Positions 1,344 to 39,408 of a stretch of 64,000 nt of DNA are shown here, in pieces. The DNA is from a virus (Duplodnaviria > Caudoviricetes): IMG/VR virus record IMGVR_UViG_3300005326_000040, positions 160,001 to 224,000 of that record. The stretch is one strand, 5' to 3'. The translations under genes were made by a program, and so were the position numbers. Below the pieces are notes generated by a model that searched no databases, was not told the DNA's origin, and saw only the letters and a program-made list of their open reading frames with translations. Numbering within the stretch: the first letter of the stretch is position 1; every line of letters begins with the position of its first letter.

Positions 1344-1371
1344 TTGACATCTAATAATCTTGGCGTATAGT
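1344..1371 (+). promoter_or_regulatory. sigma70-type promoter for tRNA-Leu
   Basis: TTGACA-16 nt-TATAGT. Confidence 0.75.
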
Positions 1372-1424: not shown

Positions 1425-1801
1425 GCCAACGTGGCGGAATCGGCAGACGCAGTGGATTCAGCTTTCAAAATGGATCGCCACAGCCGAAAGGCTATGGTAG
1501 TACGCGGCTAATTCGGGGAACGCTAAAAGGTAAAACAGGTTTTACTTCACGCCAATCCCGAGCTAAATGAACTCTCCAATGGTTCGACCAGTAGAGTTCT
1601 AAATGTGTAGAGACTATATACCGCGCACCTAAGTTGATGGAGCTTATATTGCGAACAGCTAAACGGCTTCAAAGATACGGTGAAGAGATAGTCCAGACCA
1701 CGAACACAACCAGAAACATGCTGGAAGTGGCGCCGAAAGACGAAGTGGCAGGCAAAATCCACCGGGTAACTCCCGTGAGAGTTCAAGTCTCTCCGTTGGC
1801 A
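1425..1801 (+). tRNA. tRNA-Leu(CAA) interrupted by a group I intron (exons 1425-1458 and 1753-1801)
   Basis: Joined exons fold as cloverleaf: acceptor GCCAACG/CGTTGGC, anticodon stem GTGGA/TCCAC with loop TT|CAAAA, long variable arm CGGG-TAACT-CCCG, T arm GAGAG-TTCAAGT-CTCTC. Confidence 0.93.
1459..1752 (+). mobile_element. Group I self-splicing intron (294 nt, no internal endonuclease ORF)
   Basis: P1 GAUU|CA:UGGAUC with U.G wobble at 5' splice site; P AAUUCGGGGAA (1510-1520), Q AAUCCCGAGC (1554-1563), R GUAGAGACUA (1607-1616), S AAGAGAUAGUCC (1683-1694); P3 CGCGG/CCGCG; P7 GACUA/UAGUC; terminal G1752. Confidence 0.93.
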
Positions 1802-2248
1802 CTATACATTCTTTTGAGGAAACACCTTCTCAACTTCCCTTACATATTTCTCAACTCCACCCAATACATCATAAATAAATCCAGGCGCAATACTTTTGAC
1901 AGCGTTGACTACCTGTGTTATCTCTGATATAATCCTTTGCTTTTCATCCTTTATATCCTCAGCGGCGCTAAAGACTTTCACAGCGACGATAGAATCAATA
2001 ACGTCTTTAGTGACTGTGAATTCTTTTTCTTTCTTAAGAAGGCCAATCAAAGCACTAGCGTTAGCTTTTGCTTTCGTTGCTATCGTAACAACCTCCGGCT
2101 TGGTACTTGAAGAAAGTTTTCCGCCAGCTTGCATGACATTTGAAAGTAGATTGATGGCGGCTTGAACGTTAGCATCCTGAGCGTTCTTGAGAAGAGAGGC
2201 TAGGACGGAAGAAGTAATCAGGGAGGAAGAAGAAAGTTTCGTTATCAT
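1802..2248 (-). CDS. hypothetical protein inside tRNA cluster
   Basis: 148-aa ORF filling the gap between tRNA-Leu and tRNA-Arg. Confidence 0.6.
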   Translation of the reverse strand: MITKLSSSSLITSSVLASLLKNAQDANVQAAINLLSNVMQAGGKLSSSTKPEVVTIATKAKANASALIGLLKKEKEFTVTKDVIDSIVAVKVFSAAEDIKDEKQRIISEITQVVNAVKSIAPGFIYDVLGGVEKYVREVEKVFPQKNV

Positions 2249-3330: not shown

Positions 3331-3358
3331 TTGACAATCTGATTCCATCAAGTATACT
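3331..3358 (+). promoter_or_regulatory. sigma70-type promoter
   Basis: TTGACA-16 nt-TATACT just upstream of ATG 3365. Confidence 0.7.
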
Positions 3359-3852: not shown

Positions 3853-3881
3853 TTGACATGGAATAAAAGCTGATATATAGT
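3853..3881 (+). promoter_or_regulatory. sigma70-type promoter for tRNA-Ile
   Basis: TTGACA-17 nt-TATAGT. Confidence 0.75.
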
Positions 3882-27469: not shown

Positions 27470-27954
27470 TTTTTGACGTAAGTCATCATTATTCTATTTT
27501 GCTTGCGCTTGCTTCTCAGGCGCGAGCGCACATGGAAATTCTTGTCAAATTAGCAAAAGGTACATTGCCATGGGGGATGGCAGGGTACTGTGGTGTAGGT
27601 TCCAGACACCTTCAGTCTTTGGCTAAGTCTGCTGGAATCGATATTGATTTGGTATATGGTCGTTATAGCTCGAAGCGTCATTCTTCGGGTCATTGCTGGA
27701 CGGAATATCAAAATAAAGTAATTGATGTAACGGCAACGCAATTCTTTCGAGATCATATTGACGCTCCGATTTATCTATTTGACAAAGGATTTGACAAGCG
27801 CTACATTCCGTTGTATAGGAATGAGCTAGCGGATGAAGTCATTCGGTGTTGGACGCGGGAGCAGAATTATTATTGTTATCGAGATGCGTTAACAACCATC
27901 ACTCGATTGTATGGCTTATCGCTGATTCGAGCAATAACGGAACAAAGGGTATGA
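27439..27954 (+). CDS. transglutaminase-like (Cys-His-Asp) protein
   Basis: GYCG...GHCW.....VIDVTATQF; true start may be downstream. Confidence 0.55.
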   Translation: MPQARRTEQIVFDVSHHYSILLALASQARAHMEILVKLAKGTLPWGMAGYCGVGSRHLQSLAKSAGIDIDLVYGRYSSKRHSSGHCWTEYQNKVIDVTATQFFRDHIDAPIYLFDKGFDKRYIPLYRNELADEVIRCWTREQNYYCYRDALTTITRLYGLSLIRAITEQRV

Positions 27955-28457
27955 AAATGGGAACCGTAGACACTGGCGCTATGCAATATTTGTATATGAT
28001 TTTTGTTACCCCGCTTGGAAAGGGGTACGGTTGTTTTGCTATCAAAAGGAATGGAGATAACTACACAGTATCATCCTCTTACTGTCACCCAACAGATCGA
28101 AAGCTTTTCCGAAAGGAAGTAGCGAGGGACAAGGCTTGCAAGATGATGCTTGCGCCTCGTCGGAAGAGGTTGGAAGCTTTGGATTCAGTTGGTGCGAAGC
28201 CTTCTGTGACCGTAGTGTTCTCGAAGGAAAGCCCGCAACAGAACATTGAAAATGCAACGATTGTGAACGCTGCTCTTGAACAGCGGCTCATGATGCCCTC
28301 TTGGGCGAAGCGGGCGTACAATCTTCATCACTTTACGTGTGGCTTGACCAAGGACAATATGACTTGGAACAAGCTCGTTGCGGAAGTTGGCGCAGTAGAC
28401 TTCTTGCTTGATCATTTTCGAGCAATGAATATTGTTCACATGGACATAGATTGGTGA
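27951..28457 (+). CDS. hypothetical protein
   Basis: ATG 27951 overlaps previous stop; AGGG RBS. Confidence 0.75.
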   Translation: MKMGTVDTGAMQYLYMIFVTPLGKGYGCFAIKRNGDNYTVSSSYCHPTDRKLFRKEVARDKACKMMLAPRRKRLEALDSVGAKPSVTVVFSKESPQQNIENATIVNAALEQRLMMPSWAKRAYNLHHFTCGLTKDNMTWNKLVAEVGAVDFLLDHFRAMNIVHMDIDW

Positions 28458-38622: not shown

Positions 38623-39408
38623 ATGGGCGACATTATTCGTTATCCTAGAACCTTACACATACGTGGCTCACGTAAAACTGGAGATGATTTTGAACTAGAA
38701 GATGTTTCTTTTGAGGAAGCGCTTCAAGGCAAGTATGTTGTTTACGAGGCGAAAATTGACGGTTCAAATTGTGCCGTTAGTTTTGAAGACTCACGAATGA
38801 TTCTTCAGTCTCGTGGTCATGAGCTTCGTGGCGGGCCAAGAGAAAGAGAATTTCAGCAGCTTAGAATTTGGGCAAACAGATATCAGCATGACTTGTTTGA
38901 TATTTTAGGCAATCGTTATATCTTTTATGCAGAGAACATGTTTGCAAAACATACTGTATTTTACGATAACCTTCCTCATTGGATATTTGAATTTGACATT
39001 TTTGATAAGGAAAGAAGACTTTTCCTTTCTACCAAAGCTCGTCGTCGTCTTCTAGAAGGTCTTGAGTATGTAGCTGCTCCTGTTGTATATGAGGGGACAG
39101 CCACAACACTAGAGCATTTGAAATCTTTTATTGGGCGTTCGGCATATAAGACTGACAATTGGAAGGAGAATTTGGGGCTTCAAGCTGAAAGATGTAATTA
39201 TGATGTCGCTCTTGCGATAGCTCAAACCGATCAATCTGATTTGGATGAGGGAATTTATATCAAGGTTGAAACTGAAGAAGAAACGGTTGGGCGATATAAG
39301 TTTGTAAGAGACAGCTTTACGAATAGCATTTTGAATCAAGGGTCTCATTGGCATGATAGGACTTTGATTCCTAATCAGCTGGCAGATAGTCACTGCTTTA
39401 AACTGTAG
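38623..39408 (+). CDS. RNA ligase family protein (Rnl2-like nucleotidyltransferase)
   Basis: YPRT.HI, motif I KIDG.N, AENMFAKH..FY, FEFDIFD, EGIYIK, YKFVR. Confidence 0.88.
   Translation: MGDIIRYPRTLHIRGSRKTGDDFELEDVSFEEALQGKYVVYEAKIDGSNCAVSFEDSRMILQSRGHELRGGPREREFQQLRIWANRYQHDLFDILGNRYIFYAENMFAKHTVFYDNLPHWIFEFDIFDKERRLFLSTKARRRLLEGLEYVAAPVVYEGTATTLEHLKSFIGRSAYKTDNWKENLGLQAERCNYDVALAIAQTDQSDLDEGIYIKVETEEETVGRYKFVRDSFTNSILNQGSHWHDRTLIPNQLADSHCFKL

Follow-up and report, generated by a model that had tools for sequence, protein, structure and literature searches.

A jumbo phage genome, the 338,055-bp IMG/VR virus record analysed here, carries a tRNA-Leu(CAA) gene in which a group I intron of 294 nt separates U33 from C34 in the anticodon loop. 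The gene lies at 1425-1801 (+) of the window, the 64-kb stretch of DNA under study (positions 160001-224000 of the record), and the intron occupies 1459-1752 (+). The element is very probably a genuine group I intron with a complete structure that belongs to the IC3-like tRNA-intron family of bacteria, resides in a functional phage tRNA-Leu(CAA) gene and is predicted to splice itself out by the ordinary pathway. The initial annotation had proposed that a complete group I ribozyme interrupts a phage-encoded tRNA-Leu(CAA) at U33/C34. Rfam, ARAGORN in intron mode, covariation, an independent covariance model and the terminase of the record agree with this proposal.

Exons of the split tRNA gene

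ARAGORN in intron mode (-i) reported tRNA-Leu(caa), i(35,294) for the window. This corresponds to an intron at 1459-1752, with boundaries identical to those of the initial annotation (junction 1458/1753). The 5' exon of 34 nt (1425-1458, +) was delimited by this call and by the call on the spliced product. It comprises the 5' strand of the acceptor stem, the D arm, the 5' strand of the anticodon stem, U32 and U33. The 3' exon of 49 nt (1753-1801, +), delimited by the spliced-product call, contains the anticodon CAA, A37, A38, the 3' strand of the anticodon stem, a long variable arm, the T arm, the 3' strand of the acceptor stem and the discriminator A. CCA is not encoded. The joined exons form an 83-nt class II tRNA, which ARAGORN calls as a clean tRNA-Leu(CAA) with a loop UUCAAAA of 7 nt including U33. 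This call agrees with the expectation that removal of 1459-1752 restores the loop UU-CAA-AA. With a 7-bp acceptor stem without mismatches, A73 and the long variable arm, the tRNA looks functional after intron removal. The gene escapes ARAGORN with default settings and the Rfam tRNA model, as had been anticipated for standard tRNA callers; both see four other tRNAs in the window.

Identification of the group I intron

The Rfam model RF00028 (Intron_gpI) matched 1449-1704 (+) with 53.9 bits and an E-value of 6.8e-11 over the whole window. The gathering cut-off of the model is 50 bits, which places the intron about 4 bits above it, and the model is covered end to end (1-253 of 253). The group I assignment, at first read from the letters, is thus backed by a covariance model. 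The match is the only one in the 338-kb genome. A second covariance model, R1, represents the 3' half of such introns: P7, P8, P9.0, P9a, the terminal G and two exon bases. It was built from eight tRNA introns, six viral and two bacterial, with the window intron left out. R1 gave a single, full-length match in the 64-kb window at 1605-1754 (71.5 bits, E 2.4e-16) and placed the terminal G on 1752, reaching the part of the intron beyond the coverage of the Rfam model. A chance origin of the group I match is excluded by the E-values of Rfam (6.8e-11) and of the independent R1 (2.4e-16).

Close relatives were searched for in several collections. The region 1300-1900 had no close relative among GenBank phages by blastn. 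An exact 20-mer of the R core had no match in viral contigs, a 25-mer of the intron core none in metagenome contigs, and a pattern for the 3' tail of the intron none in viral or metagenome contigs. A 25-mer of the tRNA 3' half was absent from genome contigs, that is, no bacterial genome with it was found, and the flanking ORF at 1802-2248 (-) had no match in viral contigs. There is no sign of purifying selection on the window copy of the intron, since neither a close relative nor an intron-less allele was found in the collections searched.

Splice sites and the P1 and P10 helices

The P1 hairpin, read from the sequence at 1455-1476 (+), has the form GAUU|CA:UGGAUC with 6 bp, 1455-1460 pairing with 1471-1476. 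The wobble pair U1458.G1473 marks the 5' splice site, and U1458 is the last exon base; the P1 helix with the wobble exactly at the exon junction is present as initially described. The internal guide (1471-1476) pairs with the exon at 1455-1458, that is, with the 5' strand of the anticodon stem and U32 and U33. P1 covaries with the exon: the pairing is GACU/GGUC in the viral relative L036 and GAUU/GAUC in the window intron.

The dinucleotide CA opens the intron (1459-1460) as well as the 3' exon (1753-1754), and therefore three registers give an identical mature RNA. Only the register 1458|1459 ... 1752|1753 combines the U.G wobble, the terminal G and the universal U33. Registers shifted by +1 or +2 yield the same mature tRNA but place C/C or A/A before the 5' and 3' splice sites. 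A register at 1457/1751 has U and G at the splice sites, but position 33 would then be a G, and U1457 takes part in a Watson-Crick pair of P1. The terminal (omega) G at 1752 (+) was located by the R1 alignment and by the relatives, four bases past P9.0 as in the relatives. The ligation junction 1458/1753 proposed from the sequence is accordingly backed by ARAGORN -i, by the wobble pair and by the terminal G of R1. The ligated exons are predicted to read GGAUU|CAAAAUCC across the junction, and an intron-less allele (empty site) would carry ...GGAUUCAAAAUCC....

P10 has 2 bp, with G1472 and U1471 able to pair with C1753 and A1754. The repeated CA suggests a double use of these guide bases: G1472 and U1471 can first hold the intron bases C1459 and A1460 as an extension of P1, and then the exon bases C1753 and A1754 in P10.

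Secondary structure of the intron

The elements P, Q, R and S, the helices P3 and P7 and the terminal G, all claimed for the 294-nt insert, are present. A minimum free energy (MFE) fold recovers P2 to P6 and P8 unaided, with z = -2.3. P2 is a hairpin of 8 bp with one C-A mismatch at 1478-1497 (+, MFE fold), closed by a GAAA tetraloop (1486-1489), and GAAA at the L2 position is conserved in all aligned relatives. P3 (1503-1507/1621-1625, +) was defined by an alignment of 17 introns; all five pairs are standard in 17 of the 17, with several compensatory changes. The P4-P6 domain spans 1513-1606 (+) and was defined by the Rfam alignment, the MFE fold and pair counts. It consists of P4 (1513-1518/1556-1561) with A-rich J4/5 and J5/4, P5 (1522-1523/1551-1552) with the hairpin P5a (1528-1547), and P6 (1562-1563/1605-1606) with P6a (1569-1599).

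The P7 helix is the guanosine-binding site of group I introns. Its 5' strand, the R element, lies at 1610-1616 (+) with a bulged A1611, and 1610 and 1612-1616 pair with 1689-1694. The P7 pairs are invariant across the relatives, and RNAalifold recovers P7 in R1. J8/7 (AAGAGA) and the 3' strand of P7, the S element, occupy 1683-1694 (+) according to the Rfam alignment, pair counts and R1. The pairs of P4, P6, P7 and P8 are present in 16-17 of the 17 aligned introns.

P8 is an extended hairpin at 1626-1682 (+), defined by the fold and the relatives. Its base resembles an 11-nt receptor and departs from it by one base, CCUAAG (1628-1633) facing UACGG (1676-1680); in relatives, CCUAAG is combined with UAUGG or with the identical UACGG variant. 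The arrangement of the L2 GAAA and the P8 receptor corresponds to that of Azoarcus-type (IC3) tRNA introns, and a tertiary contact between the two may form. P9.0, in the region 1698-1748 (+), pairs CCAC (1698-1701) with GUGG (1745-1748), as seen by family covariation and in the R1 alignment. It covaries as CUAC/GUAG in most relatives and CCAC/GUGG in the window intron and a few others, and always lies four bases ahead of the terminal G. P9.0 encloses two hairpins on the same strand, P9 (1710-1724) and P9a (1731-1742), the latter with a GAAA loop (1735-1738) and a C-A mismatch. The L9/P5 loop-receptor pair is approximate: GAAA is on P9a, and the receptor-like GCUAAA ... CACGC of P5 has an extra base.

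The 2-bp P10, the C-A mismatches in P2 and P9a and the degenerate P5 receptor put the catalytic efficiency of the modelled intron in doubt. The same features would suit a decaying relic that splices poorly, in which case the gene would effectively be a tRNA pseudogene and UUG would be read by host tRNAs and the tRNA-Leu(UAA) of the phage, which is intact. An Rfam score just over the threshold, the lack of an endonuclease gene and of detectable close relatives, and a second split tRNA in the same genome, whose 57-nt insert cannot be a ribozyme, also fit a relic. Yet the catalytic-core elements, including P3, P7, the U.G wobble and the terminal G, are intact and fit the family covariation, the exons are undamaged, and a strong promoter-like site precedes the gene. 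Decay is therefore an unlikely account of the locus, and a complete, self-splicing intron is the preferred reading.

The phage genome and the setting of the gene

The record has 41.6% G+C, is a linear metagenomic assembly and has a CheckV completeness of 97%. A 630-aa ORF at genome positions 299162-301054 is a homologue of the terminase large subunit (E 7e-25 against annotated terminases). Relatives of this terminase with 51-60% identity are encoded in four IMG/VR contigs, the best being a 244-kb contig (L067) with 51%; in three small contigs with terminase relatives, no group I match was found. The host record of the split tRNA is a tailed phage, because it has the terminase homologue and a CheckV completeness of 97%.

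The split gene lies in the middle part of the contig, about 161 kb into the 338 kb, within a phage tRNA cluster. This position, together with similar promoter-like sites in the cluster, argues against bacterial DNA that was mis-joined into the viral contig or mis-binned with it. Such an artefact could be suspected, as the nearest look-alikes of the intron 3' end are bacterial (Opitutaceae) and the assembly is linear and metagenomic. But the contig has both the terminase and its high completeness, and the tRNA 3' half was in no bacterial genome searched. A misassembly is extremely unlikely, and the gene is best read as part of the phage genome.

A convergent ORF of 148 aa (1802-2248, -) ends right at the 3' end of tRNA-Leu(CAA), and no terminator-like site was found downstream of the tRNA on the plus strand. 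Near the tRNA cluster, the phage encodes a tRNA/RNA repair set consisting of a Thg1-like protein (95 bits) and two proteins of the RNA ligase family (92 and 105 bits), with genes at genome positions 148877-149305 and 151730-152269 and at window positions 38734-39303. The Thg1-like gene and the two ligases suggest an exposure of the phage to tRNA damage; nothing ties the set to the tRNA-Leu(CAA) intron.

Promoter candidates and UUG decoding

The initial annotation had assigned the tRNA its own sigma70 promoter. A sigma70-like candidate, TTGACA-16-TATAGT, is indeed located at 1344-1371 (+) with 11 of 12 matches in a consensus scan; it is a consensus match, and its function as a promoter is putative. 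With the expected transcription start near 1378, the leader of tRNA-Leu(CAA) would be about 46 nt long. Shuffled sequences do not contain significantly fewer promoter-like sites than the region. Equally good consensus matches precede other tRNAs of the cluster; the one at 3853-3881 (+), with 11/12 matches, ends 10 nt before tRNA-Ile(UAU). Further plus-strand sites with 11/12 matches are at 1905-1933 and 3331-3358. One of these sites, which has an extended -10 TG, is located within the convergent ORF 1802-2248 and faces the Arg-Met-Gln tRNA cluster.

UUG makes up 25% of the leucine codons in long ORFs, or 20.8 per 1000 codons. The split tRNA-Leu(CAA) is the only CAA isoacceptor of the genome, and the phage also encodes an uninterrupted tRNA-Leu(UAA). 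The initial annotation overstated the dependence of UUG decoding on splicing: the reading of UUG does not hinge on it because the intact tRNA-Leu(UAA) and the host's own tRNAs are available.

Proposed splicing pathway and origin of the intron

The splicing mechanism would be the ordinary group I pathway, and the proposed course follows this established scheme. Transcription, probably from the site at 1344-1371, would yield a precursor of about 420 nt, in which the core of the intron (P3-P9) would fold. The 5' strand of the anticodon stem with U32 and U33 would pair with the guide at 1471-1476 to form P1. A free guanosine, bound in P7, would then attack after U1458. In the second step, C1753 and A1754 would replace C1459 and A1460 on G1472 and U1471, forming P10, and G1752 would enter the G site. 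Ligation of the exons would form the bond between U33 and C34 and with it the loop UUCAAAA. The UUG-reading tRNA would then be completed by RNase P of the host, by trimming of the 3' end and by addition of CCA.

In the ORF list, the window intron lacks an endonuclease gene, and its 294 nt are too short for an ORF of 147-206 aa, the size of endonuclease-like ORFs in longer viral tRNA introns. Because an endonuclease gene of this size would not fit, the intron is most simply seen as an ORF-less, immobile form. The lack of this gene also makes it most likely an immobile and nearly neutral passenger. It may have been acquired horizontally together with the tRNA gene, or it may be the remnant of a mobile ancestor bearing an HNH endonuclease, as in other phage tRNA genes.

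Intron-split tRNA genes in other viruses

IMG/VR was searched with a degenerate core motif consisting of GTAGAGACTA, nine free bases and CACCTAAG. The motif was found in 63 contigs (L002-L064) and lay within a split-tRNA call in 58 of them. Intron boundaries were re-mapped by the rule of U at -1 and a terminal G; two cases (L017 and L061) were mapped by eye. The 58 viral split tRNAs comprise 46 tRNA-Leu(UAA) interrupted at the classical site U34|A35, nine CAU tRNAs interrupted after position 36 (Azoarcus type), two tRNA-Leu(CAA) with C at -1 and one tRNA-Leu(UAA) split after U33 (L036). ARAGORN labels of Phe, Trp, Ser, Gln and Pro on some of the viral split tRNAs are boundary errors, and most of these re-map to Leu(UAA) or CAU. 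Some records with intron-split tRNAs are complete genomes with terminal repeats (111.6, 467.4 and 331.9 kb). HNH endonuclease-like ORFs of 147-206 aa were present inside all ten of the long viral introns (690-880 nt) tested. The two tRNA-Leu(CAA) genes (L032:6927-7759 and L042:821-1653) are on phage contigs of 111-114 kb and have an HNH-bearing intron after C34. The base before their 5' splice site is C, not U, which corresponds to the type 'Leu.3Cg'; the L032 record is complete with terminal repeats. Williams observed this type in Proteobacteria only and flagged it as needing a splicing test (10.1101/2020.01.27.920355).

The recurrence of intron-split tRNA genes in many unrelated, complete large phage genomes would be in keeping with a benefit to the phage. 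The intron could be kept as useful in addition to being self-splicing: it might make the interrupted gene or precursor immune to homing endonucleases with which co-infecting phages target tRNA genes, provide a precursor pool proof against anticodon nucleases, or time the tRNA supply by GTP and Mg. The HNH endonucleases of the relatives must target intron-less tRNA alleles, and the phage invests in tRNA/RNA repair with the Thg1-like gene and the two RNA ligases. Selfish spread, however, explains the recurrence equally well, and no nuclease or endonuclease specific for tRNA-Leu(CAA) is tied to the locus. After splicing, the tRNA would have an ordinary anticodon loop and be no less vulnerable than others. 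Usefulness of the window intron is very unlikely on this balance. The suggestion that the precursor evades host anticodon nucleases is likewise speculation, the loop of the spliced tRNA being normal and exposed. In the more general form, intron-split tRNA genes would be a selected feature of large phages, through HNH protection, a nuclease-blind precursor pool or GTP/Mg2+ gating, and not selfish passengers; this generalisation is distinctly unlikely. If it were true, the ribozyme of tRNA-Leu and the hairpin of 57 nt of tRNA-Asn would be two variants of one device at 33/34 in the same phage. A self-splicing, nearly neutral passenger remains the preferred reading of the window intron.

Other tRNA genes of the phage

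The second split tRNA of the genome is a tRNA-Asn(GUU)-like gene outside the window, at genome positions 27815-27946 (L075:316-447) in an Asp-Asn-Lys-Sup cluster. It has a hairpin-forming insert of 57 nt after U33, far too short for a ribozyme. The gene scores 42.6 bits with the Rfam tRNA model over a span of 129 nt and has two U-U mismatches in the acceptor stem. A tRNA with the anticodon UUA, which would read UAA, is encoded at genome positions 28046-28121 (L075:547-621; RF00005, 41.5 bits). Despite this tRNA, TAA is the commonest stop codon of long ORFs (157 of 328). ARAGORN in intron mode also called a tRNA-Val with an 892-nt insert (genome 82866-83845) and a tRNA-Ala with a 448-nt insert (genome 87933-88455). 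Both are without an RF00028 match and are probable false positives.

Phage tRNA inventories, codon-supply analyses and surveys of suppressor tRNAs are under-counted because standard callers miss intron-split genes. The window case is ordinary in mechanism. Its value lies in an ORF-less predicted ribozyme of 294 nt with a defined junction, which can be tested at the bench, and in a data point for a census of tRNA introns in phages.

Comparison with known systems

Williams (2020, bioRxiv 10.1101/2020.01.27.920355) numbered eight possible insertion sites around the seven bases of the anticodon loop and listed four classical bacterial types (Leu.3Ug, Arg.5Ug, fMet.2Ug and Ile2.5Ug, all IC3) and 17 new ones. 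The seed alignment of that study includes 'Eba21.Leu.2Ug', in which P1 begins GGACU|C and the 3' end reads CCAC ... GUGG-CAGG (10.1101/2020.01.27.920355). The window intron shares with it the tRNA isotype, the position after U33, U at -1, the terminal G, C as the first intron base and the CCAC ... GUGG-CAGG arrangement. In a comparison by eye, the two differ in that Eba21.Leu.2Ug is bacterial, in the long P6, P8 and P9 insertions and in the sequence outside the core. By these characters, the window intron is of type 'Leu.2Ug' in the nomenclature of Williams and would be an expanded phage-borne member of the position-2 branch, not a new kind.

A pattern based on the Leu.2Ug-like 3' tail led to two Opitutaceae genomes with tRNA(CAU) introns that follow U33 and end GAAGUGGCAGG|CA. 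These introns of 235-245 nt in metagenome-assembled genomes (L070:6838-7080 and L071:7154-7406) share with the window intron the U33/C34 site and the 3' tail GAAGUGGCAGG|CA, and they have the top global alignment scores to it. The cyanobacterial tRNA-fMet intron (fMet.2Ug) is also inserted at U33/C34, and its 3' exon starts with CA. In contrast to the window intron, fMet.2Ug and the Opitutaceae introns reside in CAU tRNAs, are bacterial and GC-rich, and have about 67-70% identity to it over aligned positions.

The highest identity to the window intron was found in L036 (IMG/VR 3300029288_000065, 234 kb), with 81% (155 of 191 aligned intron positions) and 68% over the whole split genes. Like the window intron, it interrupts a phage tRNA-Leu after U33, is ORF-less, starts with CAG and has the same P9.0 and P9a. 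Unlike it, the tRNA has the anticodon UAA, and the intron of 195 nt is 100 nt shorter, without the extensions of P5a, P6a, P8 and P9. The two phages are unrelated, as there is no terminase match.

Self-splicing has been demonstrated for the cyanobacterial and plastid tRNA-Leu(UAA) introns and for the Azoarcus tRNA-Ile(CAU) intron. The window intron shares with these IC3 introns the fold, the core GUAGAGACUA ... CACCUAAG ... AUAGUCC, the L2 GAAA and the P8 receptor. They differ in the insertion site, which is one base (U34|A35, Leu.3Ug) or three bases (after position 36, Azoarcus) further 3' in the loop. The introns of T4 td, nrdB and nrdD, of the SPO1 and Bastille DNA polymerase genes and of Twort are phage-borne, self-splicing group I introns as well, but they are located in protein genes. 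These probably belong to other subgroups (IA2-like).

According to a review from 2014, every phage intron known at that time interrupted a protein-coding gene, despite the many tRNA genes of phages (PMC3984707). Devoto et al. (2019) described the tRNA introns of Lak megaphages as 'enigmatic' and were not aware of phage tRNA introns having been reported before (PMC6784885). Recent papers on phage introns concern protein genes, and the literature search turned up no published account of a phage tRNA gene interrupted by a group I intron. The present locus offers a clear counter-example to the statements of 2014 (PMC3984707) and 2019 (PMC6784885). The rarity implied by the initial annotation does not hold: bacterial introns of this insertion type had been catalogued before, and similar introns occur in at least 58 viral tRNA genes of IMG/VR. 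The window case is part of a wider, under-annotated phenomenon of tRNA introns in phages.
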